Both the position numbers and the translations under genes were made by a program. 64,000 bases of DNA from NCBI GenBank assembly GCA_025336725.1, contig GCA_025336725.1_3647.1; one strand, given 5' to 3'. Position 1 is the stretch's first letter; the number at the start of each line of letters is the position of its first letter. The notes beneath the pieces were generated by a model. The model saw nothing but the letters and a program-made list of their open reading frames with translations, ran no database searches and was not told the origin of the DNA. The DNA is from Escherichia coli. GTDB lineage: Bacteria; Pseudomonadota; Gammaproteobacteria; Enterobacterales; Enterobacteriaceae. This document shows positions 5,612-59,255 of this stretch, piece by piece.

Positions 5612-5913
5612 CAGAAACCTCCTGTCTCTTCAGCAAATGCAGCCGCTGTTGTTGCTGCATCCAGATAAGACTCTAGTTCACGTGCTGCCCGTTTGTAAAT
5701 CGAGTGGCGAATATCGTTCGGCAGTTGGTAAAAATCCACCTCTTCTCCGTTGTGGTAAACATGCACATCAGTAATCTGTCTAAATCCATAATAATCAACA
5801 TCAGAATCACGGCACTCTGGATCTGGCAACTGGACAACTGCCTGAGCCTCTACAGTGAGCATATTGTCAAGTTCGAAATCGATTTCAAAAGTGTATGGTT
5901 TATAACGCTTCAT
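5611..5913 (-). CDS. hypothetical small acidic protein
   Basis: 100 aa ORF, start/stop abutting neighbour. Confidence 0.5.
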   Translation of the reverse strand: MKRYKPYTFEIDFELDNMLTVEAQAVVQLPDPECRDSDVDYYGFRQITDVHVYHNGEEVDFYQLPNDIRHSIYKRAARELESYLDAATTAAAFAEETGGF

Positions 5914-5974
5914 CGTTTGGTGTTCTCCTTAGTTTTTGTGGGGAGGAGTGCCTCCCCTTTATACTCACATTTTA

Positions 5975-22395: not shown

Positions 22396-23043
22396 CTACT
22401 TGTTAAAGAGAGAAAGTCGCGTAGGCTCCAGACGATACTGCTGGTCACCAGGGAACATAACACCTATAGAGGCTGTCCCTAGAATCCTACCTTCCTTTCC
22501 AGACTCCATTCTGAACCCTACCCATCCTGAACTCCTTGCAGCCTCGATGTTGTCGCTATACCCGAAAGTGGCAAGATCGTCAACACCAGCCCCAAACAGC
22601 AACTGAAGCTGACTTCTCGGAAGCCCTATAATTTCAGGAATATATGCACCAAAGTACACCATCTGCCCTACCTTAGGACCACTGCCGTACTCCATCGGCT
22701 TGCTTGTAGGAAAAGTCTTCATACCAGAAGTCCCTGCCGGATTAGGGTATGCCCCGTTTGTTGCTGTGCCTATCCACATTCTCCACTGAGGTGCCATCTG
22801 TCTGACAGTGAAAGATGTTGAAGACGTTTTGCGGCCTGCATCATCCGTAACTACAAACTTTATAGTGACATTACCAGGGGCTTTAAATGTTACCAATCCT
22901 GTGGTAGCATCCACTGTTGCAATGCTAGTATTACTACTTTCCCAAGTCTTTCTAATCCCTGGCACATTGGAAGGGGTAATAGAAGGTTCCTGCATCTGCA
23001 GTTTACCGCCCACAATCCCTATGCCGTTACCTGGATTATACAA
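22396..23043 (-). CDS. Ig-like (Big_2-type) domain protein; possibly C-terminal extension of upstream large protein
   Basis: ..WESSNTSIATVDATTGLVTFKAPGNVTIKFVV.. Big_2-like; ORF-track start is TTG, frame open from 14 nt below the upstream stop. Confidence 0.4.
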   Translation of the reverse strand: MYNPGNGIGIVGGKLQMQEPSITPSNVPGIRKTWESSNTSIATVDATTGLVTFKAPGNVTIKFVVTDDAGRKTSSTSFTVRQMAPQWRMWIGTATNGAYPNPAGTSGMKTFPTSKPMEYGSGPKVGQMVYFGAYIPEIIGLPRSQLQLLFGAGVDDLATFGYSDNIEAARSSGWVGFRMESGKEGRILGTASIGVMFPGDQQYRLEPTRLSLFNK

Positions 23044-23057
23044 CGCACCAACTTCAT

Positions 23058-26000
23058 CTACAATGTTACCTGCCTTGAGGTCAGCTTTAGAGAAGCTGGG
23101 GTGCCGTTATATGTGTGTGTCCCTGAGAAGGTTACATCTGCCTTGCCGTTGGAGATGCAAACCAAAGCATACTTCCTGTCAGGTAACTGTGCCCCAGTTT
23201 CTGGGTGAGTTTTACCCACCTGGAACACGCTCGGGTCAGTAGAGTCGTGGCTATCACTAACAGAGCTTGGACCCCCCATCAACTGTGACAAGCAATTCCT
23301 TACCCATGTCCAGTTATTGTCACTAGAGAAGTCTACAGTCAAATCAAACACAACCCACTCATTTGGCTTCCACACAGGTGTTGTGATCAACTTACCAACA
23401 CCCCCACCCTGAAGGGTAGGAGATTGTTCAGTGATCAAGGCAGAGTATGCCAGAGTTCCCAACTGCATAGTCTGGCTTGCTGTCCTCACTACCTTAGAAT
23501 CAGCATCTGTGAAGTTGTTGATGATCTGGAATGTGCCATAAGTGTTTTTACAGGTAATTCTGGCATTCAGTGTATCAATCTTTCTCACATCTGCCATGGC
23601 AGTGTTAGACACAGAGAAGTCAGAAGCTTTAGCTGAGTTTGCTGCAACAGCCGGATCAACGTTGAGGGTTGCGTTGAACTGGCAGGCAGGAGTAACCAGT
23701 AGCTTGTTATCACCTATTTGCTTCCATGAAACACTTTGAACAGGGAGATTCCATTTAATACCTGAGAAAACTTTAGCAACCCTTGGTCCCAAAGCTCCAG
23801 TTCTATTGTCTTTACAGCACATAGACATAGTGATCGTTGACGGAGTTGCTTGACCAAACAATTGCTGTGCTTTTGCAGAGGACATAGTGTAGAAATTGTC
23901 CTTAACAAACTCATCAGCCGCTAACGATCCGTCAGACCTCCACCATTGTACCTGGTACCCTGTCTTATCCCAGCCACCAACCTGCTTCAAGTCCTCCCAA
24001 GAGATTTCTAGATCCCCAGTGGTAGGATTGATTGCAGCAGTTCCTGGTGTACCGGATGACCACAATGGGATATCGAACCACGCAGGTTTAACAGATTGCA
24101 CTGCGTTAGGACCTATTGCAGCAGCAAGTTGCCGGCCCATCAATACGCGAGCATCTTTCACCAGACCCCACTCGATCATAGATCCAGAGTAACCTTCTTT
24201 CTTGTAGGCTGAGGATCCGTTCAGATGGATGAGTCTGCTGCAGTCGAAGCCATACGCCCCGCCACCGTTAGGGTCTGCAAAGTTAGTTATGATTCTATCC
24301 CTAATATTTTTCCATGCCCTACCTCCAATCTCGTAGCCATGATCATAGCATCTTTGCAACGTTGTCCAGCAAATGATTGCCATTCTTCTGCCGCCCGTGA
24401 ACCCGAAAGCGCCGTCATTCAGCTCTTTCCACAGGTAACAGTTGGTTGTCCACATAGCCCTGTGGATATTGAACCAGTTTATAGATTTAGCGGAGTTGTT
24501 CCACCGAGTTCCGGGTAATTCAGGCCACACTGCATTTACTAGCATGTCCTCTGTACCAGCATCTATCAGGAAGCCTCTTACCTTCTTGCCCATACCTGCC
24601 CTGTCTTTAGCAATCCAATTGCCAAACAGTCTCAGTTTTGGACCGTAGACAACATCTTCTGGATGCTCAAAAGAAACATACTTTAGATATACTGTAGGGT
24701 CACCATAGGTGCCATCACAAACAGCTTTGTGCATGTTCTCGCCAAGATCTAAACGAAGTCCTGTTACAACTTTAGACGTGTCGGTGAATTTGTCTGTTAA
24801 ATCAAATTCATACCACCACCATCCACCGCCAAGCATGAATTTCTTGCATCGCACAGTGTCTGTATCGGATATTCTCTTATCCCCAGCAAAAGGTGAATCA
24901 GCAAACTGATAGTGCAGAGCAGTCTCGAACAGATGTGTTGATGTGCCGTTTTCTGCAAGAACTTGCTTGCCTATTAAGTCACACTTAATGATCATCACAA
25001 CACGCTTGTACCCGTTTGTTACCGGAACTTGCATAGATATAGATGTTCCGTCCATGTTCGATCTTAGTACGGTCATGATGATATAGGGGTCAACAGCGTT
25101 GCCTAAAGTTTCAGGCCCTGGGATTATCTTGTACTTCTTGACCTGCCCCATAAATCTATCACTGGCGTAAGTTGCAGCCTCTAAGCAAGAGCCTCCACCA
25201 GGTAACTCACCAGGTCCCCAGAAAAATGCGCCATAACAGTTATAAAACCACTTGTTAGGGTCGTATTTGTTCTTGAAGGTCTGAACCTCGTTGGCCTGTT
25301 TTGTCAAGAAAACCTGCGTATCTGTGAAGATTGCAGGGTTTACTCTTGACTGTCGATTAGCATACCCGGTTTGGTTAAACCATTGATTGCAAGAGTAGTC
25401 CCTCATATAGTCATAATCAGAGTATTTGTTGTTTGCATCCTCGTTCCAACACATATTGAGGTTGGTGCCGCCCATGCACACAATATATTCTTCAACGTAT
25501 TTATCACTTCTGGTAGGAACACCTATGAACCATCTGTTAACAGGCTCATCCCAAGCGGTGCGCTCATCTTTAACGCAGATCGCAATCCAGTTATGTGTCC
25601 CTGTTTTCTTGCACACATCTCGCTTCATACCGTAGTAGAATTCTTTAGTATTTGGCTCAGGTGCGCTTATTAGGTAGCTCCACGCCTGGTCCGCATAGGT
25701 TCCATTGGTACGAGGGTCATGATCAAAAGCATACATGATGATCCTTTCCCCACCAAGATGTTCGCCAAGAGTAACTTTGATATTCACATCGCCGTAACCG
25801 TTGCGAACAACATCCATATTGTCAATAGAGATGCCTCTAGGGGTGTAGGCAATTTTCAGTGAGTTATCCTCACTAGTGCCACCAAGGGTGATCCCTATGT
25901 TGTTTGTTGTCCCGTCGGCATATCTTACTGTGGCTTCCCAGCGTATTCCGAAATATCCTACATCATGGCTGACAATTTTCAGTGTACGAGCACCAGAGTT

Positions 26001-26369
26001 AGGTTTTCCAGGATCAGGCCAAGGGTTTGGGTGTTCGTGAACAGTTAACGATGTCCCGTTTTGTTCATTGACCTGCAACATTTTACCACCTCTGCCGTTT
26101 GGGTTGAACTCCCATAAGGCCTGTGTCTGCACCAAGTTATCATAGGTATTTCGTCGCTGATTATAAATCTCTTGGGTAACATCATAAGTTACTGATCCAG
26201 CATCCATTCTATGGAGTCTGACCATATACGATGTATCCCCTTCTACTGCAGGCTGAGCCGCATTCAGTCCAAAGTATATAGTATCATTAACATGGAACTG
26301 TTTGTTTCTACCGACAGTATGCCATTTACCATCAGACTGGTAAGCCGGGACAATGGTGTTCCAGTTCAA
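23058..26369 (-). CDS. large tail fiber / tailspike-like protein with putative carbohydrate-active domain
   Basis: 1103 aa; ORF-track start is TTG without good RBS; frame open upstream into 3' end of ORF 26423..28033. Confidence 0.45.
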   Translation of the reverse strand: MNWNTIVPAYQSDGKWHTVGRNKQFHVNDTIYFGLNAAQPAVEGDTSYMVRLHRMDAGSVTYDVTQEIYNQRRNTYDNLVQTQALWEFNPNGRGGKMLQVNEQNGTSLTVHEHPNPWPDPGKPNSGARTLKIVSHDVGYFGIRWEATVRYADGTTNNIGITLGGTSEDNSLKIAYTPRGISIDNMDVVRNGYGDVNIKVTLGEHLGGERIIMYAFDHDPRTNGTYADQAWSYLISAPEPNTKEFYYGMKRDVCKKTGTHNWIAICVKDERTAWDEPVNRWFIGVPTRSDKYVEEYIVCMGGTNLNMCWNEDANNKYSDYDYMRDYSCNQWFNQTGYANRQSRVNPAIFTDTQVFLTKQANEVQTFKNKYDPNKWFYNCYGAFFWGPGELPGGGSCLEAATYASDRFMGQVKKYKIIPGPETLGNAVDPYIIMTVLRSNMDGTSISMQVPVTNGYKRVVMIIKCDLIGKQVLAENGTSTHLFETALHYQFADSPFAGDKRISDTDTVRCKKFMLGGGWWWYEFDLTDKFTDTSKVVTGLRLDLGENMHKAVCDGTYGDPTVYLKYVSFEHPEDVVYGPKLRLFGNWIAKDRAGMGKKVRGFLIDAGTEDMLVNAVWPELPGTRWNNSAKSINWFNIHRAMWTTNCYLWKELNDGAFGFTGGRRMAIICWTTLQRCYDHGYEIGGRAWKNIRDRIITNFADPNGGGAYGFDCSRLIHLNGSSAYKKEGYSGSMIEWGLVKDARVLMGRQLAAAIGPNAVQSVKPAWFDIPLWSSGTPGTAAINPTTGDLEISWEDLKQVGGWDKTGYQVQWWRSDGSLAADEFVKDNFYTMSSAKAQQLFGQATPSTITMSMCCKDNRTGALGPRVAKVFSGIKWNLPVQSVSWKQIGDNKLLVTPACQFNATLNVDPAVAANSAKASDFSVSNTAMADVRKIDTLNARITCKNTYGTFQIINNFTDADSKVVRTASQTMQLGTLAYSALITEQSPTLQGGGVGKLITTPVWKPNEWVVFDLTVDFSSDNNWTWVRNCLSQLMGGPSSVSDSHDSTDPSVFQVGKTHPETGAQLPDRKYALVCISNGKADVTFSGTHTYNGTPASLKLTSRQVTL

Positions 26370-26422
26370 AGTCCTTGTTGTATGAGTCCTGCCTGTGCCA
26401 TGTTTGTCATGATAGGTTATTT

Positions 26423-28033
26423 TTACGGATACAGCCCACGTCTGTTAACATTCCTGTTATACTGGGTGACAATAACTTCGTTGGCCCCTCCGTGGTTCCA
26501 GTTGGTAGAGAATTGGTAATTTGCATCTGTAACAACCGTGCCTGCAGCATTTACCAGTTCAATCTTGTCAATAATGAACGTAGCCCCCTCTGGCTGAGGC
26601 TTCAATTTCATCTTGACTGTGTCGCCAATGTAGATATTGCTAACGCTGCTAACACCGTTAACGTCGAAAATATCATCAACTCCCCAACTGTCTACTGGGA
26701 CATTTTTATACCAATTCTCAGGAACCTCTGTGAACCCTTGACTATTAAGTCTGCCGCCAAACAGGTTATTAGAACCTGCAAAACTTCCCCTTGGAATGCC
26801 TGACCACCAAAGTTTACCATTAACAACAGTAAAAGTCCCTAAGAAACCTTCTCTGTGAATGCCTTGGAAATAAACACTTTCTGTCCAGCTAACTGGGAGG
26901 CGTTGCTCAACGTATTTGGCTGTGGCAAGAGCTTGATAGTGGATAAAATTGGCCCTGGGGCTATTGTTTGCAGACTGTGCACCAATATCATTACATAAGT
27001 TGCGAGAGAATCCGCGATACTGCTTAGTACCATTATTGAAGAAAATGCCACTTGTTCCGTACCCACGAGCCATTATTACTTCATGGGTGTAGGTAATATT
27101 TAAGGAACGCCATGTATCATCTCCCCAGACATCTTGCCCGTAGAATACGTTAACAAGCTGCTGATCATTAGGCTTGTGCATCCTCTGCGTTGCAATTATC
27201 GCCCCGTTAGGACCACACATGAATCCTTTCCACTCCTCATCTGCAGGAATGCCTTTCAAATCGTTGCGAGTAATCTGAGCAGGGGGCCAAACAAGGTCGT
27301 TTCTACTGTTGTTTCTCAGAAAGTCGTATCCAGCAATCCAAAAACCTCTAGGCCCACCGAAAATAACAGAGTTGTCATGCACCTCGCAGTTGATACTTGG
27401 GTTTTTCCAAGGGCCTGTTTCAGGATTTTCTGATGTTTCACCAATCTTTACAGGAGTTGCATGCTGGTTCTTATCTACATGTAAAGATCCGTAGGTGTTG
27501 TTACCAGACCCATACAGGTTCAGTATGCCAGTACCTTCTGCCTCTGCAATAACCCAGACAGTGTTGTTAATACCTCCCATTACCTCAATAAGGCGCTCTG
27601 GGTGGGTGTCAAGGTGCAATCCTTTAACAATCTGTTCCGGAAGAGGTGTCCACTCGTTGACGCAAACATCGTTACCACCTGCCGCAGTGGATCCGATAAG
27701 ACCTGCAGTGCAGCCGATGTAGAAAAACTGGTTATCAAAAGTCCGGATCACAAACGCACGGTCTGCTCTCCACACATGATCAACATTCCAGGCTGTCTCG
27801 CTCGGGTAGTTTATAGGGCTACGATCCCCAGTGCGACACTCCCCGAACTTGTTATAGCCAGTAATATTAAGCTGACCATCGTCAAAAAGTATAGCTAAGC
27901 TATTTACATAAGCTACTGTAGTGCTTGTACCGTCACTGTTGTCTATTGGATATGACAGAACAGCAAGTTCCTTAACTCCACTCCTCTTATCGAGGAAATG
28001 ACGACCAAGTTTTAGCAAAGGGATTGGAAGCAT
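26423..28033 (-). CDS. tail fiber/tailspike-like protein, possibly N-terminal part of the 23058..26369 protein
   Basis: 536 aa; ATG with GGAGA RBS; Gly/Asn-rich beta-rich repeats. Confidence 0.45.
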   Translation of the reverse strand: MLPIPLLKLGRHFLDKRSGVKELAVLSYPIDNSDGTSTTVAYVNSLAILFDDGQLNITGYNKFGECRTGDRSPINYPSETAWNVDHVWRADRAFVIRTFDNQFFYIGCTAGLIGSTAAGGNDVCVNEWTPLPEQIVKGLHLDTHPERLIEVMGGINNTVWVIAEAEGTGILNLYGSGNNTYGSLHVDKNQHATPVKIGETSENPETGPWKNPSINCEVHDNSVIFGGPRGFWIAGYDFLRNNSRNDLVWPPAQITRNDLKGIPADEEWKGFMCGPNGAIIATQRMHKPNDQQLVNVFYGQDVWGDDTWRSLNITYTHEVIMARGYGTSGIFFNNGTKQYRGFSRNLCNDIGAQSANNSPRANFIHYQALATAKYVEQRLPVSWTESVYFQGIHREGFLGTFTVVNGKLWWSGIPRGSFAGSNNLFGGRLNSQGFTEVPENWYKNVPVDSWGVDDIFDVNGVSSVSNIYIGDTVKMKLKPQPEGATFIIDKIELVNAAGTVVTDANYQFSTNWNHGGANEVIVTQYNRNVNRRGLYP

Positions 28034-29836: not shown

Positions 29837-30103
29837 TTAAGCTTTTTGCTCTTCGTTTTTAACGTAGTCAGGGTGCTGGCAACCCCACCGGAGCGAGATG
29901 AATTTGCTAATAAGCTGGGGGCAAGCTACCGAAGGTGCGTATATCCACGCATACCATTCAGGAAGCGTATCATTATACCCCATATGAATAAACACCCCAG
30001 TCATCACTGCCATGCCTATGTTTGACCATAGCTTAGATTGGGACACTTTCGTAGGGTCATCAGATGCCGCAACCAACCCCCATAAAAACTGAGTTAATTT
30101 CAT
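29837..30103 (-). CDS. small membrane protein (holin-like topology?)
   Basis: 88 aa; 2-3 hydrophobic segments and charged C-terminus. Confidence 0.3.
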   Translation of the reverse strand: MKLTQFLWGLVAASDDPTKVSQSKLWSNIGMAVMTGVFIHMGYNDTLPEWYAWIYAPSVACPQLISKFISLRWGCQHPDYVKNEEQKA

Positions 30104-30112
30104 TTACCCTCT

Positions 30113-30850
30113 TTAAGCATAAGATATCGTGATCCATTGACCGTTTACAAATTTTTGAATAGCACCAGTCCAATAGTCACCTTGATACGGGTGTTTATAG
30201 GCGTAATTGCCGGAGCACATTACATGCCCAGGGTATACTCTTGATTCTCTGTAGGTGGTTCTGAAACGGTTTGCTATCCTTACATCTTCAACACCCCTAC
30301 TAGGCATAGGGATAGTAAGGTTACCACTGCTATCTGCGCTACTACCATTTACCCTGCGGACCACGTTTCTCCCACCAACTGTTGCATATTGACCTCTGGC
30401 GGTTTTATCGTTACAATCTACTCTTCCCCCTATTTGAGCGCTGCCGCAGGATTGTTGTCCATTAACAGTGGCTCTAGGTATCGTTACCGCATTAGCATTT
30501 GCAGAGGAGCTTTTTGCATCATTGCATTCAAGATTCCCTTGGATAGCCAGTCTTGCACGGTTGGCAGTTATAGCATTGAGCTTCATAGCCGAAAACACAG
30601 GTTGCCCACCAGAAGGTTGAAATCTCCAACGGAAACCGTCTATTTGGTGAGAGGGATCATCAAGGTCTGTGCCGTCAGCACCACCTATGTTGTCCATAAT
30701 CCAGAAATCCATCATCGTCTTGTCTGGAGTTATGGTGGTGTATATCGCCGCATTGTCTGTTGACGCGGATGCGAACTCGATTCTTTGAAGACCTAAAGTT
30801 TGAGTCTGGATCATTGTGTCTCCAGCCTTGTCAACATAAAGGTCATCCAT
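30113..30850 (-). CDS. tail fiber 1, C-terminal part (P2 gpH / Mu S-like); frame-split from N-domain ORF
   Basis: C-terminus ..AIQKFVNGQWITISYA resembles P2 gpH end (..IQKYINGTWYNVAQV); paralogue of 32171..32956. Confidence 0.6.
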   Translation of the reverse strand: MDDLYVDKAGDTMIQTQTLGLQRIEFASASTDNAAIYTTITPDKTMMDFWIMDNIGGADGTDLDDPSHQIDGFRWRFQPSGGQPVFSAMKLNAITANRARLAIQGNLECNDAKSSSANANAVTIPRATVNGQQSCGSAQIGGRVDCNDKTARGQYATVGGRNVVRRVNGSSADSSGNLTIPMPSRGVEDVRIANRFRTTYRESRVYPGHVMCSGNYAYKHPYQGDYWTGAIQKFVNGQWITISYA

Positions 30851-31161
30851 TTCTTCAGGCGAGTATACATTGAGAACTTGACGTGCGGCAGCTTTGTCTG
30901 GAACGTCTGCTGATTATTAGTGACCCTTAAGAATCTATTATCCCATCCTGGGACAACATCTTCTGTTAAATGCTTCAACATTTGGTGAGAGAGCATGTGA
31001 AGTTCAAAGTTATCAACCTCACATGCCACTCTTTGTGTCATATCCCAACCTTTCAATCTCTCTTCTTTTTTTGGCTGAGACTTATTCAACTCTCCCGTAT
31101 TTTCAAGCACAACATCCTGATTGGCCCAAATATCAAGAGGGATAACTGGTTTAGTCATCAC
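30811..31161 (-). CDS. tail fiber 1, N-terminal domain ORF (different frame)
   Basis: AGGAG RBS + ATG; MMTKPVIPLDIWANQDVVL..KGWD.. homologous to N-domain ORF 33019..33213; last ~45 codons look out of frame. Confidence 0.5.
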   Translation of the reverse strand: MMTKPVIPLDIWANQDVVLENTGELNKSQPKKEERLKGWDMTQRVACEVDNFELHMLSHQMLKHLTEDVVPGWDNRFLRVTNNQQTFQTKLPHVKFSMYTRLKKWMTFMLTRLETQ

Positions 31162-31209
31162 GTTCTCCTGAGAAAATTCCTTAGACTATTTTAACACTTT
31201 AGAGAACAA

Positions 31210-31240
31210 ATGCAAGAACGGAGTCCTTTCCGTTCTGACC
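31210..31240 (-). terminator. terminator-like hairpin
   Basis: Minus strand GAACGG-AAAGGACT-CCGTTC followed by T-rich tract, upstream of fiber-1 RBS. Confidence 0.3.
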
Positions 31241-31368
31241 TTTGTTTACCTTTTACTATGCTCTACGAGCATGTGCAAAATCTTTTGTATAGTCGGCTCG
31301 ATGTTTCGAGACATCTGTCCTGACATCCTGCTTAAGGTCGTTAATATCGGCCTCTAGCTTGCTTAACT

Positions 31369-31560
31369 CTAAGTCTCGATAACGGAATCGTTATCTTTTT
31401 GTAACCATGCTATTTTCGACACTAAAATGAGGTCTTTCTCCAGCTCATCTAGCCTCTTGGAAATTCCTTTCATTTGCACACTGGTTGAAAGCCCATACAC
31501 AGATCGGGACAACAGTAGCTTCCATGCAGATACCGTATAAAGCCGCCAAATCCAACCCAC
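31369..31560 (-). CDS. small hypothetical protein; coiled-coil continuation in -1 frame to 31256
   Basis: GTG start 5 nt after strong GAGGAGG RBS; -1 frame continues ..LSKLEADINDLKQDVRTDVSKHRADYTKDF.. with no start codon. Confidence 0.4.
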   Translation of the reverse strand: MGWIWRLYTVSAWKLLLSRSVYGLSTSVQMKGISKRLDELEKDLILVSKIAWLQKDNDSVIET

Positions 31561-31571
31561 AACACCTCCTC

Positions 31572-32156
31572 TTAGAGGGTAGGTCGTCTCCCGAAGAAAA
31601 TGTCAGGGGCTTTAGATGTATCTATTTCAAGCAGTTTTACCCTGTATATTTTCAAATCTCTGATGTTGCGTTTTTGGTCATCAGTAAGATCGTATTCAAG
31701 GTCAATCATGTCTTGATAGGCACCAATTCTAGCAGTAGCCCAAGCAAGTTCTGTCTCTATGACACCCTCTGCCTGTTGAACAAAGAATTCATTGTCTGTG
31801 ACAAATTCATCACCAACTAAACGCAAAGCGTCGTGGTGGAGCATAATGTTTTCTGGTACCTCTTCTTTTTTGGCGATAACCACACGAAGACCTGGAGCAG
31901 GCCACAAGGCATCAGGTTCTTCTGTAGATGTCTTAAGAATACCCTTCTCGTCAACAAGTAGGAAGATACAGCCCGGATTTTCTTGTCGTAGTGTTCGTGA
32001 TTGCACATACCAATCGCCATCATCATTACGTAAAAAATATCCGGTGTATGCCGTGTAATCCTCAACCTCCTGAGGAGTCAGCTCCTTGGTCTCCTTGTTG
32101 GTGTAGTATTCGCCAGATCCCGGTTGGTAAAGTTTAAACTCTTGAAGTATTTTCAT
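31572..32156 (-). CDS. tail fiber assembly protein (Tfa / gpG / Mu U family)
   Basis: 194 aa; C-terminus ..IRDLKIYRVKLLEIDTSKAPDIFF.. resembles lambda Tfa (..[22 protein letters not shown]..). Confidence 0.75.
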   Translation of the reverse strand: MKILQEFKLYQPGSGEYYTNKETKELTPQEVEDYTAYTGYFLRNDDGDWYVQSRTLRQENPGCIFLLVDEKGILKTSTEEPDALWPAPGLRVVIAKKEEVPENIMLHHDALRLVGDEFVTDNEFFVQQAEGVIETELAWATARIGAYQDMIDLEYDLTDDQKRNIRDLKIYRVKLLEIDTSKAPDIFFGRRPTL

Positions 32157-32170
32157 GCTAGTCCTCCGAT

Positions 32171-32956
32171 CTATGCATAATTAACAGTGATCCATTGACC
32201 ATTTACAAGTTTTTGTAAAGGTCCTGCCCAGTAGGTTGAACCACGCATCTCTTTTTTGTCACCGAAATGCCAGCCTGTGACAACGTAGCCGTTGCGGATT
32301 GGAGATTCAGAAACGCCGTCCACAAGTCTTGCACCGATTCTGATGTCTTGCACACCTGTCTGCGGGATAGTGATCGTTACATCACCGTTACCGTTAGCCG
32401 TCACTCCGTTCACAGAGCGAACCACATTTCTGTTACCTACAACACAGTGCTGGCTTCTTACAACCATACTGTCACAACTTGCACCACCATTAACATATAC
32501 TGACCCAGCCGTCAACTGACTGGCAACATTACAGTTGGTGAATGTTGCTGTATTGCTGATAGTAAGGTTATTGCACCTCATGTTATCGACAACTTCAACA
32601 TTGCCTACCACTTTCAACAGCGCACGGTTAGCCGTGATCGCGTTAAGGTACATCAAAGTGAACTCTGGATTAATATCCGGCTGAGTTGGCTGGAATCTCC
32701 AACGAAACGCATCTACTGTAGATGTGCCACCATCATCAAACGCCCCAGTGTTATCACTTAACCCAAAGTCGAGAGTTGTCTTATCTGGACCGATAGTTGT
32801 CTCTATCCAAGCCTTATCTGTCTCGGCAGCTTTAAAGTTGATACGCTGCAAACCTAAGGGGCCTGTCATTGTATCGCCTGTAACTTTTACATACCTGGCG
32901 TCTGCCTCTTCCTTAGTAATAATCCCAAGGTTTCTACGGGCAACAGGAATGTTCAA
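32171..32956 (-). CDS. tail fiber 2, C-terminal part (P2 gpH / Mu S-like); frame-split from N-domain ORF
   Basis: C-terminus ..PLQKLVNGQWITVNYA; ORF-track start is TTG preceded by TGA TAA TAA; followed by Tfa gene. Confidence 0.6.
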   Translation of the reverse strand: MNIPVARRNLGIITKEEADARYVKVTGDTMTGPLGLQRINFKAAETDKAWIETTIGPDKTTLDFGLSDNTGAFDDGGTSTVDAFRWRFQPTQPDINPEFTLMYLNAITANRALLKVVGNVEVVDNMRCNNLTISNTATFTNCNVASQLTAGSVYVNGGASCDSMVVRSQHCVVGNRNVVRSVNGVTANGNGDVTITIPQTGVQDIRIGARLVDGVSESPIRNGYVVTGWHFGDKKEMRGSTYWAGPLQKLVNGQWITVNYA

Positions 32957-33018
32957 AAATCGCTCAGGTTATTATCACGTATTGTGATAACGGCCCTCTG
33001 TAAGGTGGGATCTGCTCG

Positions 33019-33213
33019 TCAGCAATATATTTTGCCCAAGTCCCGGAGCATATTGAAAATATAGTTAAGTTCTTCACATGACGGCTTTTGACCAAGATCC
33101 CAACCTTTTCTCCACAAATCATCAATCGGGCGTAGCCTGTTCTGTCTGTGGGTGTTAGGCAGAACCTGATCCTCCTCTGCCCAAATCTCTAATGGAAAAC
33201 TAGGTTTTGACAT
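33019..33213 (-). CDS. tail fiber 2, N-terminal domain ORF
   Basis: 64 aa; MSKPSFPLEIWAEEDQVL..KGWD.. homologous to 30811..31161. Confidence 0.5.
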   Translation of the reverse strand: MSKPSFPLEIWAEEDQVLPNTHRQNRLRPIDDLWRKGWDLGQKPSCEELNYIFNMLRDLGKIYC

Positions 33214-37591: not shown

Positions 37592-38144
37592 TTAGTCGTG
37601 AGACTCGTTCCAAGGTCCCTGGAAGCTTGAGTTAGAACGGCTTACCACAACAGTAGGACAGGATATTGCGACCCCTGTTACAGAAGACGTTGACCATGGT
37701 GTGTAGATTTCAACAACAATATCTATGGTTTGTTCACCAAGACCTGTTATCCCTACCGCACACATGCCGTTGTTGTCGTTTCCGTATTTCTTACCTGCAA
37801 GGATTTGATGTCCGGCTATCCAAACGTTGAGCTGGGGTTTCGGCAAGAGTAGCCATTCAGTTTAAAGAAGAATGTTACGTTCTTACCCTGACCTGAAACG
37901 TTATCTACGTATCTCCACCTCCAACGGCAAACCCTTTGCTTGGGAGTTATATACTGGAGCACAATCCCCGTAAGTCCCTGTGTGTGCAACAATTGCACCG
38001 AACTGGTTAGCACGGATAACAGAAGCTTCTACACGACCACGGAAGGTATCTCCGGTTGCATCTATGGTGCCTCTAAAGCTACCATTATTGGCATAAATAT
38101 CCCCACGGAAGGTACCACTAGTGGCGTTAACTGCCCCCGTGAAG
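37592..38144 (-). pseudogene. frameshifted 3' continuation of lambda J-like gene (receptor-binding region in three frames)
   Basis: After stop at 38145 a -1 frame encodes ..GNFTGAVNATSGTFRGDIYANNGSFRGTIDATGDTFRG.. (lambda J C-terminal-like), then two more frame changes (ORFs 37816..38013, 37592..37846). Confidence 0.5.
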
Positions 38145-41100
38145 TTACCAGAACTGGCGTTGAGCGTTGCCTTTCACCCACACATCCATAAATTGGGGCG
38201 TGCCCGTTCTTGTTAATATACCAACCGTATTTATGGTACTTCCGTTGCCATCGTAGTTGTTTGACGAAATCTCCTGTGCAATCTTGGCTGAAGAGATCGT
38301 GCCATTTTCTATGAAGGCATCTTTCAAGAACGCTTGGTTGTTCTTGATTGCGAAAGCAAGGGTTGCTGTTCCGTTTCCAGGGTTATATACCGCAAAATTG
38401 TTTGCACTAACCATAAAGTAGGATTGAACTTGGCCCCCAGACCCTTCCATCCCCAACTGGATACCTGCAACATATTTATTCCCTGCGGAGTCCACCTGTA
38501 TTTTTGTGCCCCACTGAGCGTTTACTTTACCCTCTAAGTCGGTTACAGCCTTAGATGTTGTAGCTACTGCAGCCCTGATCTCGGACACATCTCCAACATC
38601 ATCAATGATCTCCTGCTTAGCAACAGCAAGTTCTTGACGAATAGCTGACGCTGTTCCGTTAATCAGGTCAACAGTGGCCTGATTAGTTTCAGAAATATTT
38701 GCAGACAAATCTTTCTTAGCTTGGGTAAGCTTATTATCCAACCCCGTAATATTGTTGGTGTTGGTTGTAATCTGCCCTTTAGCAGAGGTTAATTGTTCAG
38801 ATAAGGCTGCAGTTTTCTGATTCAGCAGGTCCGTTGTGGCCTTGTTGGTGGTAGAGATCAATGTATTGAGATCAGATTTAGTGGTGTTGATCTTGCCATC
38901 TAGAGTGGTGTAGTTTTTAGATACCGTGGCGTTAGTCTGGCTAATCTTCTGGTCAAGAGTCTGAGAAGTTCTATTCAGCAAATCCACAGTGGCCTGATTG
39001 GTGCTCAGAATGCTTGCATCCAGCTCAGATCTCTGAGTATTCAACTTACCTTCCAGGCTCTTATCTCCAGCCAGATATCCTTTTTCAACATCACCGATCT
39101 GCTCGGTTAGCTCACCTTGTGCAGCAACCAGTTTTTCATCCAACGCATCTGTTTTCTTGTTAAGAAGATCAGTGGTGGATTTGTTGGTTGTCTCAATCAA
39201 CGACGACAGTTTGGCACTCTCATTATTCAAGTTGTTGGTCAACTCACCTTTCGTTGCCGTCAGCTTATTGTCCAGTGCCTCGGTTTTCCGATTAAGGAGA
39301 TCTGTAGTCGTCTTATTGGTTGATACAATCAGAGAGTTCAGCTCAGAGCTTTCCTGTGCTAAAGCATCTTCCAACTCCCCCCTTGTTGAAACAATCTTCT
39401 CGTCCAAAGCTTCAGTTTTCTGATTTAGCAGATCGGTTGTAGCTTTGTTAGTGGTCTGGATTAGAGAAGTCAGCTTGCCACTTTCTTTAGAAAGATCATC
39501 TGCAAACTTGTTCTGAGTGGCTACCAGTTTCTGGTCTAGAGTGGTAAGCGTTCCATTAACGTCCTGGAAGTTGTCGTGGGTTTCTTGGATGAATATTCCA
39601 ACCCTATCCCCCAACTGAGCATACAGCTTGTCTACTCTAGAGAACTCACCTTCCATGTGGTCAAAAGCCTCGTCAACTCTACCATCCATGTACCTGTTAA
39701 GTTCTGTGACACGATTTTCAACCTCTTCAATAGAGGAATCCAAAGTGCTCATCAACTCTTTATAAGTTTCTGTCTTTTTGAATTCAGCATCTATCTGAGG
39801 CATCAAATCCTCGATAGAGGTGTAGCAGCGTGCAGCGCATTCTACAAACTGAGAGCTACCAAAAGCGTTTGTGGTTCGAATATACCAATAATAAACCTTA
39901 TCGTTCTGCAGGCCTTCAGATGTCCAAGTTGAACCAACACCCATACGGGTGGCGTTTGAAGTAACGGTTGCATCGCTGGTGTCGGGCAACCTTGTCATAC
40001 CAGATGTCCAAAAGTCATACTGGGTGCTTACACTTGCTAAATCCCTGCTGTGTGGAATCAAGGTGATAGCAAAGTATCCCTGCTTAACCTCTACAGAAAC
40101 AGGAGCTTCAGGTGCCTGAATGTTAAACTCGCAGTACGCTTCTGGAGATACACCACCTTTATAAGATGTTGCAACCACGGTTGCTGTGTATGATCCTTTG
40201 GTCAAGCCTTCTACTCGGACAAACTGCTCAACTGTCTGTGCTGTCCAAACAATCTCTCCGTTCTTTCTTACCTGCACAATATTTTGAGCGTAAGTTCCAA
40301 CGTTGTCCCAAGCCAAAACACCGTGAGTTACTTCCCCGGCTTGGAGAACGGAATACCTGAAGTTTTGCGGTTGAGCTACACCAGATGGAGATATCGGAAT
40401 ATCTACATTACCAGAGTCCGGAAGTTGTCCTGTGGCATCATTCCACTCTTTAGCATCTTGACGGAGTTTTACCTTGACACCACCCTTTTTAGTAAACTCC
40501 CATTCAAGAACCCTCATTTCTTGGCCCACTATACCAATACTTGGGAGGTTCATTGTAACGTAACGACCAGGTTTAAATTTAAAACCTCGCATATTGCAGG
40601 TGACTTCAATAATCCTGCCAGCTCTAGCGCGTCTTAAGAAGATTGCAGAAACACGCTGGGCTTGATAAGGGCTGGTAACAAAGCGATAGTCTATATCGAT
40701 TATCTTTCTTTCTCCATCCTTCTCTATCCACTCTGGGACAAACACTGATGGAAAATCTGTTTCAGAATATCCTTTGGTCGGGCTAGTGAATCTGCCAGTT
40801 ATTGTGTTGGATCTTTTGTCAAACGAGGCTTCCGGATAGATCTTAACCTCACCACAGACACAGTCCTCACTCAGTGTCATTGTTGCAGGGCCATAGTATG
40901 CACCAACCAGCAAACCATACTTACCAGCAACATAACTAAGATCTGCACCACAGGCTTTCAGCATTTCTGCCATAATACTTGCTGGGGCCTCATCCATGTC
41001 GAACTCACCGTTAATTGTGTAACGTCGCTCACTGGTTCCGTCAGCGTTTTTTACCGCCTCGTCGCATATGTTGGCAGCCTCCTTGAAGGACTCCCAGTTG

Positions 41101-50533: not shown

Positions 50534-51118
50534 TTAGTTAACATCAATAGCACGACCAGACTGGTTGGCAATAGCCTCATCATTGGAGGTAGCAATAACA
50601 CCAGAGTATTCGCGCTCATCTGGAGCAAGCGTCCAGGTATTGCGGTTAATGGTTTGTTCTGCCTCAGTCATCAGCAGATCTTTATCCTGAGTCAACAGAG
50701 AGCCTACAGGGATCGGGTTTTCCATCTCAGGACCAGCATACTGGTTCCACCATGTGGCATCTCCGGTTCTAGGCAATCTGAAGTTGATCAGGTAGTACAG
50801 TTTATTAGCCCACTTAATCCAACCCTCATCATCACAGAGAGAGGTTGTCCCAGAATCAGGCTGTGGGTAGGTGAACTGATCAAGACCTACGAAAGCCAGC
50901 CTTACAATCTCGTTCTCTTTGGTAACAACCTCAAAGAACGCTTGGTATGTTCTAGATCTTCGATCCATGGTAGACTGGAAGTTTATGATGTTTAGCACAT
51001 CCGGCTCTTGTCTTGCCACTTCCATAATCTTGTTATCAAGAACAGTCTTCATGACCTTCTTGCTGAGAAAGTCCATATAAGGGAGCAAACAGCTCGTCAG
51101 CAGCCAGCTCCCTTCCAC
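50534..51118 (-). CDS. baseplate wedge protein gp25/W-like, C-terminal part (frame-split)
   Basis: ORF-track GTG start without RBS; ..KIMEVARQEPDVLNIINF.. downstream of N-part in another frame. Confidence 0.4.
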   Translation of the reverse strand: MEGSWLLTSCLLPYMDFLSKKVMKTVLDNKIMEVARQEPDVLNIINFQSTMDRRSRTYQAFFEVVTKENEIVRLAFVGLDQFTYPQPDSGTTSLCDDEGWIKWANKLYYLINFRLPRTGDATWWNQYAGPEMENPIPVGSLLTQDKDLLMTEAEQTINRNTWTLAPDEREYSGVIATSNDEAIANQSGRAIDVN

Positions 51119-54282: not shown

Positions 54283-54312
54283 ACCGATAAAATAAAGGGG
54301 GCCGGAGCCCCC
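54283..54312 (-). terminator. rho-independent terminator
   Basis: Minus strand GGGGGC-TCCG-GCCCCC followed by TTATTTTAT. Confidence 0.5.
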
Positions 54313-54323
54313 TGCACAGTTTA

Positions 54324-54464
54324 TTACCAAAGGTCGGTAGACATGAAGTTGATATCTTTATTGTTCTCCCACTCAAGTTTTGCATCAAATATTTTGTTAA
54401 ACTCGCCCTCATCTATTGAAATCGTGATTTTCCCATCACTGATCTCTAAAGGTAGCATTTCCAT
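54324..54464 (-). CDS. small hypothetical ORF (46 aa)
   Basis: MEMLPLEISDGKITISIDEGEF.., below ORF-track cutoff; sits just upstream of terminator; weak RBS. Confidence 0.25.
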   Translation of the reverse strand: MEMLPLEISDGKITISIDEGEFNKIFDAKLEWENNKDINFMSTDLW

Positions 54465-54637
54465 AGTTCTTAATTGAGAAGCAAAACCGAGGCCACCCCG
54501 GCAACGGAAAATCCCGCCCCATTAAGGTGTCCAAAGGATTAACAAACCCGTTACCTCAAATGAAAGTATCTTTGCGAATCATATCGCTGATAGCATCCAG
54601 CTGCTGATTTCTTTCACTTAGTGGGTTGTAACGGTCA

Positions 54638-56662
54638 TTAAATAATTCCGGCGCTTAGTATTATACCGATAATGCCCAGCTTACCGAGCAGACCAACTTT
54701 GCCACCAGGTGTCTTGAGGCCACCCCCACCTTTTCCTGCCGGAGCTCCACCACCAGATCCTTCTGTAGTAGCGGCACCAGCTGCTGCTGCTGCTCCAGCT
54801 GCACCCCTTAGAGAGTTAAGGAATTTAAAGGTTTTTACAAGCATGGATGCCATGACAAAACCTTTTGTTAGGGCGTTGACTACCAGCATGATGGCAGCAG
54901 CAAACCCTGCCCATTTAGCATAGCTAAAGGTGTCATGAAGCTCTTCAGAATATTCCTTCGTCTTAGCTGTTATGAATCCCCATTTAATCCCCCATTCAAG
55001 GAAAAACATGCGGATCTTGACTATAGTGTTGTTTAGTTCACCAACTACCCAGTTAAGGCCTCTCACAAACCCGCTAACAAAATCACCAGAGGCATCCACA
55101 CAAATTACGGGGAGTCTCGCCAGTGCGAATCAGTGTATAATGAACTCTGTTAATTCATCGCTTAACGGGTGAACAGCTTCTGACAGGATAATTCGATGAA
55201 GGTTTTCAGTCTGTTTTCTGCCAATGCGTTAGACTTCTGCATTCTTTCATAACCGGCTGCAGATGCCTCGTTCATATACTTAGCCACATACTTCATGATC
55301 TTGGCTGTCTTAACCTCACCTTTCTTCATCATGTCCATGAACTGATCCATGGACAGTTCAGAAAAGACCAAAAGCCTCTTTGGTGGCTTTGATAAAGGTT
55401 ATGCGGGCAATGCTTCAGCAAGTTGTTGCTTCAGTTCTTCGGACATTACCTGTCCTTTCCCGAGCAATTTGCTGGATTGCCATGATACCACGCTGGTATT
55501 TTACCTCATCGGCACCATAAGCAGCAGCATACTGTGAGTATGCAGAAAACAGCTCATGCACTTCCTGATTTGTCATCTGGTTTTTGGCGTTTACCGACAT
55601 CTGGGCGTAACCTTGAAGACCAGATTTGAGATCAAAACCAAGACGCATAGCCTCTTGCTGGACAAACGCAACCTCACTGTTGGCTTTGTTTGGATCTCCA
55701 GTAACAGCAGTAAGAGCAGCACTTGCCCCCTCCATCATGTGACCAGATCTGTTCACAGCAGTAAATCCAGAGAAAGCCGTATACGCAGCTGTTGCATTAA
55801 TAACAGACCTACGTAAGTCTCTCATGGCATCACCAAGTGTAAGCGTTTGGCTGGTGGCGCTTTTAAATCCAGACTGCAGAGCTGACAGGTGGGCGTTAAA
55901 GGTTGACTTTTTCATCTCCCCGCGAGCAAACCTGGACTCTAACTCTGAGTATCCAGGCAAGCTTCCACGGAATCCGGCTCCATACTTGGCAGAAAGTCTT
56001 ATCGCAGAGTTGTAGAGGTGGGTTCTCCTTGCCTCACGATCCGACATAAGCCTATTATCCATGCCAGCTTTACTGTCCCTTCTTAGCTGTCTATGATAAC
56101 GATTCATAGCAGCTGTCTGAGCTTTCACAAGGTTAGGGTCGGAAGCCACACCACCCATATTAGGGTTACCAGGGATATACTTGAAAGATTTGGCATTAGC
56201 CAAAACTCTTGCCTTAGGTGCCTTATAACCGCCGTAAGACACTGGTGTAGATTTGGCAGCCTTTTTGGCCTCTTTAGCTTGCTGCTGGTAGAACTTACGC
56301 ATCCTAGCCATTTCTGGATTTTTAGCGGTAAGATTGCCTACAGCTTGTTTACGTCTCGCGTTCTCCCTACGTTCTATTGCGGCCCTTACTGCAGCCTCTT
56401 TCTTGGCTTGTGCTACGCTCTCCCTGTGCAGTTTAGCATTTGCCTGAGATTGCTGTCTGGCAACCCGCTGCATTGTTTGCTGGGTTTTAACAGCCACTGC
56501 CTGCCATCTACTCATCGGGTTGGCTGAGTTAAAATCCTCGCCAAGTTTCCTGAACTCCCTCCCAATACTGCGAATTTTCTCTACAGCTTTTTTGTAGGAG
56601 GAGTTCTCTATCTCAAAGCCAATCTTGTTGACTGTTGTGGCAACTATTTTGTTTGTAGCCAT
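54638..56662 (-). pseudogene. tail tape measure protein gene, apparently disrupted
   Basis: Three consecutive same-strand ORFs in three frames (55415..56662, 55162..55371, 54638..55099) downstream of G/GT chaperone; the two distal ORFs lack RBS and ATG; additional in-frame TAA. Confidence 0.5.
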
Positions 56663-56674
56663 GCTTTCCTCATA

Positions 56675-56711
56675 ATAAAAAGGGCCAGATCCCAGAAAAG
56701 GAATCCGGCCC
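56675..56711 (-). terminator. hairpin plus T-run between chaperone and tape measure genes (terminator or attenuator)
   Basis: Minus strand GGGCCGGAT-(12-nt loop)-ATCTGGCCC followed by TTTTTAT. Confidence 0.35.
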
Positions 56712-56716
56712 TTAGA

Positions 56717-57450
56717 TTATCCTCTCCTGCGCTTAGCTTTCGCAGCAGCTGCGGCAGCCTTCTGCTCCCGCTCCATTTCCCTGTTTTGGACGGTATCTAG
56801 GAATTCTTCGATATCAAGATACTCACAGAGCTTCAGGAAATACGCCATATCTGCAAGATTTAGCGATTCAAAATTTTCCCCTTTGAAATTCTTGAGCACC
56901 CTGCACCAAAGAAAGTCGAACCAGTTAAGTGAACTGTTCTTGGCTGCCCACTCACTGGCCCTCACAACAACCTTGCTTATTCCTGCTCTTCCGGAGTCTG
57001 ATCCAGATTGTTCACCTGCTGGATCATACCCATCTGCTGTAACATCTCCAGAAGGCTTCCTAAACCGTCTTGTGTGAAAAAACAGCCGTAGTTAACCTCC
57101 AGAACCTTACCTGCCAGCTTAATCATCTCCAGCAGATGCCCTGCAAACACAACATCAGGGTTAAGCTTATCCACACCATCCACGGTAATATCTTCGAACA
57201 AGATTTTAAATAACTCTTCAATAGAGTTATCATCAAGTTCCTGGAACAGGTAAGCTAGGGCTGTAGGAAGGACCTCTGCCATATTCTGACCGCCTGAGAG
57301 AATAGATCCACCGATAGCACCTAGCGGGACAGCCACAATCTTACCGATTTTAGGCATGTTTTTCATTGCTTTCATCGGCCCCCAGTGAGTGATCACAAAG
57401 TTGTGCCCTGCTAAATCAATCTCTGTTGTAGGTCTAAAGTTTATAGCCAT
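56717..57450 (-). CDS. tail assembly chaperone frameshift product (gpGT-like) via -1 ribosomal frameshift
   Basis: -1 frame is open from near the slippery site through ORF 56717..56965 (82 aa, no own RBS). Confidence 0.55.
56977..57450 (-). CDS. tail assembly chaperone (gpG-like)
   Basis: 157 aa upstream of tape measure; slippery heptamer near 3' end. Confidence 0.65.
   Translation of the reverse strand: MAINFRPTTEIDLAGHNFVITHWGPMKAMKNMPKIGKIVAVPLGAIGGSILSGGQNMAEVLPTALAYLFQELDDNSIEELFKILFEDITVDGVDKLNPDVVFAGHLLEMIKLAGKVLEVNYGCFFTQDGLGSLLEMLQQMGMIQQVNNLDQTPEEQE
57076..57082 (-). other. -1 slippery heptamer T TTT TTC
   Basis: Minus strand ..GGC TGT TTT TTC ACA..; forward strand A6 run 57077-57082. 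Confidence 0.55.
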
Positions 57451-57493
57451 TTTATAGCATCCTTATTAGTCATGTTGTGCACCATATTTGTGT

Positions 57494-57522
57494 ATTTTAC
57501 CATGATTATAGCGCATTGTCAA
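57494..57522 (-). promoter_or_regulatory. sigma70-like promoter upstream of chaperone gene
   Basis: Minus strand TTGACA (57522-57517), 17-nt spacer, TAAAAT (57499-57494). Confidence 0.4.
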
Positions 57523-57523
57523 T

Positions 57524-58762
57524 TTAACCTTTCAACCAATCCAAGTATGCAGGATCATTTTTACCTTCATCGCTGTGCCATTCGAAGCGAGAGTTGCCGC
57601 TGTTTTCAAGGATATAGCAGCCTGCATTTTTAGCATTCCACTCTTGTGTTTTCTCAGGATCGTATAAGGACTCGTCCAACCCTAAATGCTTCAGTGTCTC
57701 TTGGATGTTTGACTTCCACCAAGCCTGTCTTGGCATTCTGCCACCACGGTAGCTCCAGAAGCTGGTAGATACCTGATCGTCCTCTGCCAAAATCCAGCCA
57801 TCCTCCTCCTTATAGGACACACCTGTGAAGTAATCCCTGTCAAGGAAGGATTGAACATGATCCATCTTAAACTCTTTTTGGATATGCTTAAACAGCTTAC
57901 TACGCCCACCAGGAACGTTACAGCTTGTTGCATACCTTACCATGTCCCACATAACGAAAGGGGTTACCTTTTGATCTCTGTTTTTCAATACCTTAAAACT
58001 CATACAAGCTACCAGCTCACCGTCAGATGTAAACAGACCCTTCTTCACTTCCTTGGCGGGAGCATACCCTTGAATGTGGTTTTTCTCCATAAAGTCACGG
58101 TAAGTTTTATTGTCCACATCCCTAACTGTGCACTTTCTGGCATAGACGGTCTTCTCGTCTTTGACTCCTAAAGCATTCTTAAGATATCTCTCAATGATAG
58201 GTCTTTTCCGAGCATCCTGCCAATCACAATCCCATATAGACAACATGCGAATACCTTGTTTTTCACAGGCCTTCCTTTTCAGGATGTGGTACCATTTCCC
58301 CTTACTATCCACGGAGTGCCAATAGGCACCATTATATTCCACAGCAAGCTTAAGCTCCGGGATATAAATGTCCAGCTCCATCTTTTTCTTGGAAGGATCT
58401 TTAAAGTTGTCCAGAATCCGCACGTTCTCTTCAATATCTCCGCTATAGACACTTTTAATGAACGTCAGGATCTCTTTTTCACCATTAGACTGATTGCGAC
58501 AGCAACGAGGGCATCCTTGTCCTTTCCCGTAATGGAATTCAGGACGCTGCATGAAGATATTCCCACACTCTTTGTGGCGCATCATCATAGGCGTTGAGGC
58601 GTTCACATAAGAGTCTTCAAAATACTCATAATCCCCACCATGAACTTCTACACATCTCTCAACTATTTCTTGGAAGCTAGGAACTTTTTTCACAGAAACA
58701 GACCTTGCTGCGCAAGTCTTGCACCCTTGCCCAGATAAATGCTTGCTGGGTTTCTGATACAT
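57524..58762 (-). CDS. homing endonuclease-like protein (zinc ribbon plus nuclease-like domain)
   Basis: 412 aa between tube and chaperone genes; N-terminal HGGDYEY..C..CG..F.Q.P..H..G.GCP.C zinc-ribbon; central ..LDIYIPELKLAVEYNGAYWH.. Confidence 0.45.
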   Translation of the reverse strand: MYQKPSKHLSGQGCKTCAARSVSVKKVPSFQEIVERCVEVHGGDYEYFEDSYVNASTPMMMRHKECGNIFMQRPEFHYGKGQGCPRCCRNQSNGEKEILTFIKSVYSGDIEENVRILDNFKDPSKKKMELDIYIPELKLAVEYNGAYWHSVDSKGKWYHILKRKACEKQGIRMLSIWDCDWQDARKRPIIERYLKNALGVKDEKTVYARKCTVRDVDNKTYRDFMEKNHIQGYAPAKEVKKGLFTSDGELVACMSFKVLKNRDQKVTPFVMWDMVRYATSCNVPGGRSKLFKHIQKEFKMDHVQSFLDRDYFTGVSYKEEDGWILAEDDQVSTSFWSYRGGRMPRQAWWKSNIQETLKHLGLDESLYDPEKTQEWNAKNAGCYILENSGNSRFEWHSDEGKNDPAYLDWLKG

Positions 58763-58849
58763 TATTCTTCCGCACGTTTTGCAATGAATCTCAACCTTAT
58801 CCCAGAGGTCTTGCTTACTACATGGCTATGACCATACTTTTCAGCATTT

Positions 58850-59149
58850 TCAAGGATATCTTTTTAATACCTTTTTGATCCACTCCTCGGTAGTGCACCT
58901 GTTACCACGCTCATGTGGGAATTTCTTACCCTTTCTTGATTTTGCAGATCTCTCAGCTCCACAAACAGGGCATCCTCTTTTTAGATTTATATGGTTATCA
59001 GGTGTCTGGTTGAAGTGGTTACCGCAGGTATTGCAGACTATTTCTACCTTATCTTTGCATGTTTTGTATTCTATAAGAGAATAATCGTACTTATCTCCGT
59101 GAACCCTACGAGCTTTTTCGATAAACCTTTCTGCACTCAATTTAGCCAT
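58850..59149 (-). CDS. small zinc-ribbon protein related to N-terminus of adjacent endonuclease-like gene
   Basis: 99 aa; HGDKYDYS..CNTCGNHFNQTPDNHINLKRGCPVCG parallels N-terminus of ORF 57524..58762. Confidence 0.45.
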   Translation of the reverse strand: MAKLSAERFIEKARRVHGDKYDYSLIEYKTCKDKVEIVCNTCGNHFNQTPDNHINLKRGCPVCGAERSAKSRKGKKFPHERGNRCTTEEWIKKVLKRYP

Positions 59150-59209
59150 AACTGTCTCCTCCTTTATTGTAGGATACTAAAAACAAACAAATATGTCAAA
59201 ACCCTAAAA

Positions 59210-59237
59210 GCAAAAAAGCCCCACCCGAAGGTGAGGC
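59210..59237 (-). terminator. rho-independent terminator
   Basis: Minus strand GCCTCACC-TTCG-GGTGGGGC followed by TTTTTTGC, downstream of tube-like gene. Confidence 0.55.
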
Positions 59238-59255
59238 TTATACTAAAGTGTGCCC

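Follow-up and report, generated by a model that had tools for sequence, protein, structure and literature searches.

A frame-scrambled, most likely mis-sequenced copy of the rV5-type membrane protein gene gp31 in a Vequintavirus tail-fibre module

The closest known gene to the locus described here is gp31 of phage rV5 (PHROG 5345), with the orthologs bas50_0037 of Bas50 (DrSchubert) and VUF53583.1 of rV5_ev147. In Table S3 of the rV5 paper, gp31 is listed as a "membrane protein" of 104 aa with one transmembrane domain (TMD), and it is not flagged there as a virion protein (PMC3606486). The locus analyzed here belongs to a window, i.e. the whole stretch of DNA under study, of 64,000 nucleotides; it shares with gp31 the position, the Shine-Dalgarno sequence, the GTG start, the stop codon and the terminator, but its reading frame is broken six times and no single ORF encodes the protein. 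Two further systems are relevant for comparison. Tail assembly chaperones of the lambda G/GT type are produced by a programmed -1 frameshift, and both the slippery heptamer and the two-frame layout are conserved among relatives. Like them, the gp31 locus belongs to the tail module and continues downstream in the -1 frame, where it has no separate start codon; however, it contains no slippery heptamer, and its relatives do not share the two-frame layout (both properties were tested). Errors of assembly or sequencing, in turn, give rise to genes which annotation pipelines flag as "frameshifted" pseudogenes. With such genes the window copy has in common that its indels are private, that near-perfect homology continues in the other frame, and that many unrelated genes are hit; unlike them, it shows an unusually high density of private changes in gp31 (~15%) and several complex patches.

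Matches to the region, at ~92% identity, come from 117 phage records, practically all of them Vequintavirus (rV5-like coliphages). For the 16-kb stretch around the locus the nearest record is at most ~94% identical, and no phage exceeds ~94-95% when regions of 3.5-16 kb are compared. No match was obtained among E. coli complete genomes, and among plasmids only one plasmid-labelled phage was found, at 94.6%; for Tfa and a 690-aa protein of the window, look-ups of the exact protein sequence gave no match either. When 48 genes were aligned to those of phage VB-EcoM-WM, the substitutions at codon positions 1, 2 and 3 numbered 388, 211 and 2188, respectively. A fibre protein of 581 aa is identical to one in many public assemblies, from which its gene differs by 15-19 nt, all synonymous and mostly transitions; in six assemblies with this identical protein, the neighbours of 104, 346, 347 and ~1877 aa are all intact. 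Judged by these comparisons, the window is a naturally diverged rV5-like Vequintavirus.

As to gene content, the window differs from most Vequintaviruses by an insertion of ~1.65 kb (57450-59259), located between the genes of the tail assembly chaperone and the tail tube region. It includes an ORF of 412 aa with no Pfam match (57524-58762, minus strand) and one of 99 aa with a DUF723 / treble-clef zinc-finger match (58850-59149, minus strand). The full insertion is common to HMD-6 and JEP1 at ~96%, three other records being distant (82-86%) or partial, and it may represent a mobile or accessory cassette. At ~5913-5931, a 1.3-kb gene of VB-EcoM-WM (PQ014731 45344-46672) is missing from the window.

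The first-pass annotation had described a small gene with a very strong ribosome-binding site directly after Tfa, continued by a coiled coil in the -1 frame. Its coordinates and the -1-frame peptide that it quoted (..LSKLEADINDLKQDVRTDVSKHRADYTKDFAHARRA) match the sequence of the minus strand exactly. The elements of the locus are as follows.

31572-32156, minus strand: Tfa gene (tail-fibre assembly chaperone), intact, immediately upstream of the gp31 locus (PHROG 136, E 3.7e-34)
31565-31571, minus strand: Shine-Dalgarno sequence GAGGAGG, identical in loci L004-L007 and GGAGG in the 50%-identity lineage
31558-31560, minus strand: GTG, conserved start codon of the gp31-family gene according to alignments with relatives
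31369-31560, minus strand: 63-codon ORF from the ORF list, with GTG start and a TAG stop at 31369-31371
31445-31555, minus strand, -1 frame: 36-codon TTG ORF with the ancestral transmembrane segment LDLAALYGICM..TVVPICVWAFNQ (PHROG 5345 positions 3-28, E 0.0078), family blocks at 31523-31555 and 31481-31516
31256-31390, minus strand: -1-frame open stretch including its stop (31256-31258), contains LSKLEADINDLKQDVRTDVS
31215-31236, minus strand: intrinsic-terminator-like hairpin AGAACGGA-AAGGAC-TCCGTTCT with a T-rich tail, just past the ancestral stop and kept in relatives

Tfa keeps a single frame over 194 aa, with 96.9% amino-acid identity to the relative, and ends with TAA at 31572-31574 (minus strand); its last codons bear a private 6-nt scramble, which reads GRR in place of PER in the alignment with relatives. 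The spacer between GAGGAGG and GTG measures 4 nt. Both signals are kept in relatives, and the proposal of a small gene with a strong ribosome-binding site thus holds to the extent that a real gene begins here, with a genuine and conserved start. Immediately after the GTG, however, one nucleotide is privately deleted (an A missing at 31557/31556).

In the -1 frame, 44 codons (31390-31259) are open without a start codon and read RFRYRDLELSKLEADINDLKQDVRTDVSKHRADYTKDFAHARRA. Open stretches of at least this length make up 6% of the stop-to-stop stretches on this strand, i.e. the length is not rare, and the stretch is significant because of its homology to PHROG 5345. The peptide aligns with profile positions 64-95 (E 7.8e-6) and contains an unbroken run of 20 residues that agree exactly with rV5-type gp31 (residues 66-85). 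The startless coiled-coil stretch pointed out earlier is therefore confirmed, as part of the same gene. Its tail KHRADYTKDFAHARRA is off-frame again after an indel patch at 31292-31307. In the 63-codon ORF, only codons 29-62 match the family (profile 29-63, E 2.1e-4, the profile match itself beginning at residue 28), and even these include one short shifted stretch; the first 28 residues of the product (GWIWRLYTVSAWKLLLSRSVYGLSTSVQ) are out-of-frame sequence. The 63-aa protein is a chimera of out-of-frame and family sequence. Taken together, the three fragments of the window account for positions 3-28, 29-63 and 64-95 of the PHROG 5345 profile. Of the proposed 63-aa gene with a single -1 continuation, the ORFs themselves are present, but the ancestral frame switches six times and codons 1-28 are nonsense.

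The frame map of the window copy consists of six frame-changing indel patches and one in-frame 3-nt insertion, which are private with respect to all relatives and leave the net length unchanged. Because the indels sum to zero, the GTG and the ancestral TAA stop share one frame, and the sequence in between zigzags. Of the 104 residues, 85 lie in seven peptide blocks that are 100% identical to the rV5-type protein and switch between frame 0 and frame -1.

31557: patch, -1
31555-31523, minus strand, frame -1: block, family residues 3-13
31518-31521: patch, +3, in frame
31516-31481, minus strand, frame -1: block, family residues 15-26
31471-31479: patch, -5
31470-31420, minus strand, frame 0: block KGISKRLDELEKDLILV, family residues 32-48
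31418-31419: patch, +2
31414-31397, minus strand, frame -1: block NSMVTK, family residues 50-55
31389-31396: patch, -2
31389-31372, minus strand, frame 0: block DSVIET, family residues 59-64, followed by the private TAG stop at 31369-31371
31368-31372: patch, +2
31366-31307, minus strand, frame -1: block LSKLEADINDLKQDVRTDVS, family residues 66-85
31292-31307: patch, +1
31287-31249, minus strand, frame 0: block QKILHMLVEHSKR, family residues 92-104, followed by the ancestral TAA stop at 31246-31248
31588-31592, 31210 and 31183: further indel patches that flank gp31 within the zone of private changes

Within the blocks, ten substitutions separate the window from rV5_ev147, all synonymous. Measured against five closer loci, the private differences number 11 in 255 nt of block sequence and 38 in 60 nt between blocks; they amount to ~15% over gp31, and several of the patches are complex changes, not slips of a single base. 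Family-invariant residues are overwritten, e.g. the G-I of the DVSGIR motif. The zone that is dense in window-private changes extends over ~410 nt (31183-31592), the scramble running from the last Tfa codons on into the intergenic spacer. More than half of the window-private differences within 3.3 kb (57 of 103) fall in 31200-31599, and 374 nt (31183-31556) contain 8 of the 30 net frame-changing events recorded in the 48.6 kb compared.

A perfect 7-bp inverted repeat, GATAACG-ATTC-CGTTATC in the minus-strand reading, occupies 31378-31395 and is flagged on the plus strand by a terminator scan. It was made by window-private indels, relatives having the imperfect sequence GATAGACTTGATTCCRTTATY, and is probably due to chance, although a templated quasi-palindrome mutation would give the same result.

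The gene is intact elsewhere. In rV5_ev147 and Bas50 (DrSchubert), a single 315-nt ORF annotated as "hypothetical protein" lies between Tfa and the next short tail-fibre gene; from the 117 matching records, the statement of a single ORF covers the annotated phage records inspected and the loci translated. The intact translation reads VELDLAALYGICMGTVVPICVWAFNQWHTKWKGISKRLDELEKDLILVKNSMVTKDRLDSVIETRLSKLEADINDLKQDVRTDVSGIRADVQKILHMLVEHSKR, and at full length it matches PHROG 5345 with an E-value of 1.5e-48. Ten loci from IMG/VR and ten from metagenomes encode intact homologues of 103-104 residues, with identities of 98%, ~50% and 31%, and the protein database adds a lineage at 85%. When the DNA of four lineages with protein identities down to 50% is aligned, no indels separate these lineages over the ORF; gaps occur only in the window. 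The gene order (fibre, Tfa, gp31-like gene, further genes, 88-aa membrane protein, fibre) is preserved even in the 31% lineage. The 88-aa membrane protein (PHROG 1322; 29837-30103, minus strand, in the window) is conserved in every lineage at a site downstream of the gp31-like gene, and in the 31% lineage (L012 3318-4075) three consecutive membrane-protein genes occur in the fibre cluster, i.e. the gp31-like gene, one of 155 aa (PHROG 7451, strongly hydrophobic by eye) and the one of 88 aa.

These comparisons with related genomes, which had been suggested as a check, identify the split as a defect of the window sequence and not as a designed two-frame gene. The idea of a two-frame gene as a biological feature has to be given up, since the relatives possess one ORF of 103-104 codons, which is the single ORF expected after correction. 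Searches with window-specific junction 25-34-mers in IMG/VR, JGI metagenomes and GTDB genomes yielded no match. The P0003 type, a gp31 lineage at 85% identity, was considered as the partner in a possible chimera and rejected, as the patches do not match it. On the evidence of homology, the window copy can be regarded as a gp31 / PHROG 5345 ortholog by descent, but not as an intact member.

The damage is not confined to gp31. According to tblastn searches with the proteins of relatives, the same kind of indel disrupts no fewer than nine further conserved genes of the window; the pieces are mostly 94-100% identical in amino acids to relatives, and 67-87% where they span indel clusters.

54327-56662: tape measure (778 aa in phage ECP32), divided among five or more frame pieces
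~53800: gene of a 294-aa protein that adjoins the tape measure, split in two
51084-51109: 238-aa baseplate protein, N-terminus broken
37841-38241: C-terminal part of a 1381-aa tail fibre, with a cluster of +1/+2 insertions
22403-28033: 1878-aa Ig-like protein in 3 pieces, with breaks at 26429, 23080-23099 and 22429
20054 and 4731: private frame-breaking indels in the genes of a 188-aa and a 160-aa protein, respectively, the latter a 1-nt deletion close to the 3' end
32171-33213 and 30113-31161, minus strand: paralogous short tail-fibre genes of 346 and 347 aa, intact in relatives

Each of the two short tail-fibre genes is broken by a private 1-nt deletion (at 32958 and 30911; GAT[C]TTTTG and AATAATC[T]AGC) at the homologous NNL(S/A)D motif, and the gene at 32171-33213 has three +1 insertions in addition (33046, 33000, 32985). 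The matching deletion site may be due to chance or to mis-mapping between the paralogs in polishing. A lytic myovirus could not carry all these gene defects together.

We consider it likely, with good confidence, that the locus is an indel-corrupted and most probably mis-sequenced copy of the known gp31 gene, and that programmed frameshifting plays no part in it. The ortholog of the 104-residue rV5 gp31 is scrambled by patches of -1, -5, +2, -2, +2 and +1 together with the in-frame 3-nt insertion, and a poorly supported or unpolished assembly stretch would be one example of the source. The homology, the frame map, the private nature of the indels and the damage to other genes are demonstrated by the comparisons, and the technical cause is inferred from them. 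A technical origin of the indels appears most likely because the patches are private, because they are concentrated in a ~410-nt zone of high divergence, and because similar indels occur in many essential structural genes. Three observations point in the other direction. Simple homopolymer slips are the typical error of some sequencing platforms, whereas several patches are multi-base rewrites. The frame path never enters the third frame and ends in the frame in which it started, which is expected in about 1 of 32 cases for random frame-changing indels and could hint at something non-random. Furthermore, the public collections scanned contain no independent copy of the window junction by which it could be confirmed or refuted.

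One alternative is a genuine pseudogene, in which case the mutations would really exist in the source phage or in some defective genome of its population, and gp31 would be dispensable and decaying. The indels are, after all, present in the sequence as given; gp31 has no assigned function and, given its entry in the rV5 table, could be dispensable; and the change of an imperfect repeat into the perfect one at 31378-31395 is of a kind that templated (quasi-palindrome) mutation can bring about. We nevertheless hold this explanation to be unlikely: neutral decay of sufficient age to collect 6-8 indels should also scatter non-synonymous changes, of which there are none in 85 block codons, the length of the gene is invariant in lineages down to 50% identity, and essential genes (tape measure, baseplate, fibres) are broken in the same window.

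An alteration or generation of the sequence in silico, for example as a simulated or model-generated Vequintavirus variant, in which case the patches would have neither a biological nor a sequencing origin, is quite improbable. It would account for the window-specific junction that occurs in no public collection scanned, for the fact that no record exceeds ~95% identity over regions of 3.5-16 kb, and for the complex local rewrites in some patches. The pattern of substitutions is, however, a natural one (mostly third-position, mostly transitions, preserving the amino acids), and the mosaic gene content, with the insertion common to HMD-6 and JEP1 and a missing methyltransferase gene, resembles that of a real isolate.

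There is a slimmer chance still that the patches are real and result from a localised mutational process, such as templated or quasi-palindrome complex indels in the Vequintavirus tail module, with frame-scrambled gp31 alleles existing in nature. If this were true, gp31 would be shown to be dispensable, and other tail genes would be transiently frame-scrambled as well.

Programmed -1 frameshifting or another form of recoding that joins the 63-codon ORF to the coiled-coil segment, for which the strong Shine-Dalgarno sequence with its start codon upstream and the 44 open, startless codons of family sequence in the -1 frame could be cited, can be dismissed with near certainty: no X_XXY_YYZ heptamer occurs in any frame of the 192-nt ORF, including the 25-nt zone in which the shift would have to take place (TAACGATTCCGTTATCGAGACTTAG); the 91-nt junction folds with an MFE of -16.2 kcal/mol (z -1.36), 16 of 200 shuffles folding at least as well, and the only hairpin of this fold sits inside or upstream of the shift zone; a single shift would leave the N-terminal 28 and the C-terminal ~17 residues out of frame; and the two-frame layout exists in none of the relatives examined, each of which has a single ORF. 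The absent slippery site, the non-significant structure and the non-conserved arrangement thus exclude this candidate.

Since the window copy is corrupted, the properties of the protein are best considered in the intact relatives. Intact gp31 has one N-terminal TMD (residues 5-23) with an acidic N-terminal flank (-2, no K/R) and a C-terminal flank of +4; an N-out/C-in orientation is predicted from these flank charges by the positive-inside rule. The remaining ~80 residues show heptad-like hydrophobic spacing and are helical and coiled-coil-like. An AlphaFold2 model (pLDDT 88) proposes two long helices, 5-50 and 55-103, with a break at the conserved MVTKDRLD motif. With this model, Foldseek found no match below E 0.3 in PDB or BFVD, Pfam returned only sub-threshold coiled-coil matches, and a literature search for the function of gp31 found none described.

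Based on topology rules, synteny and the predicted structure, we tentatively propose that gp31 may serve the tail-fibre module as an accessory protein that is not part of the virion but sits in the inner membrane, with a predicted N-out/C-in topology and a cytoplasmic helical hairpin. The strict linkage to the fibre chaperone suggests, as speculation, a membrane-anchored accessory role in this module, in fibre maturation or in exclusion. An i-spanin (Rz-like) was considered and rejected: the predicted N-out/C-in topology is opposite to the N-in/C-out one needed, no ORF with a lipobox, i.e. no gene for a partner lipoprotein, adjoins the gene, and in the related phage LL12 the spanins have been assigned to gp65 and gp66 (PMC6658697). 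A lysis-related or holin role is likewise speculation; gp31 has no match among the Pfam and PHROG holin families, and no holin is positively identified in the papers on rV5 (PMC3606486) and LL12 (PMC6658697).

The feature is hence a known and ordinary gene in corrupted form; it is neither a recoding device nor a new small gene. Its main value is one of quality control, as clusters of private frame-breaking indels occur in the window, and any call of a split gene, a frameshift or a missing start within it must be compared with relatives before it is interpreted. The intervals of special concern are 54300-56700, 51080-51110, 37840-38240, 32950-33050, 31180-31600, 30910-30990 and 22400-26430. For the family itself, the intact relatives reveal a strictly length-conserved, membrane-anchored helical protein that is always found with the tail-fibre chaperone.
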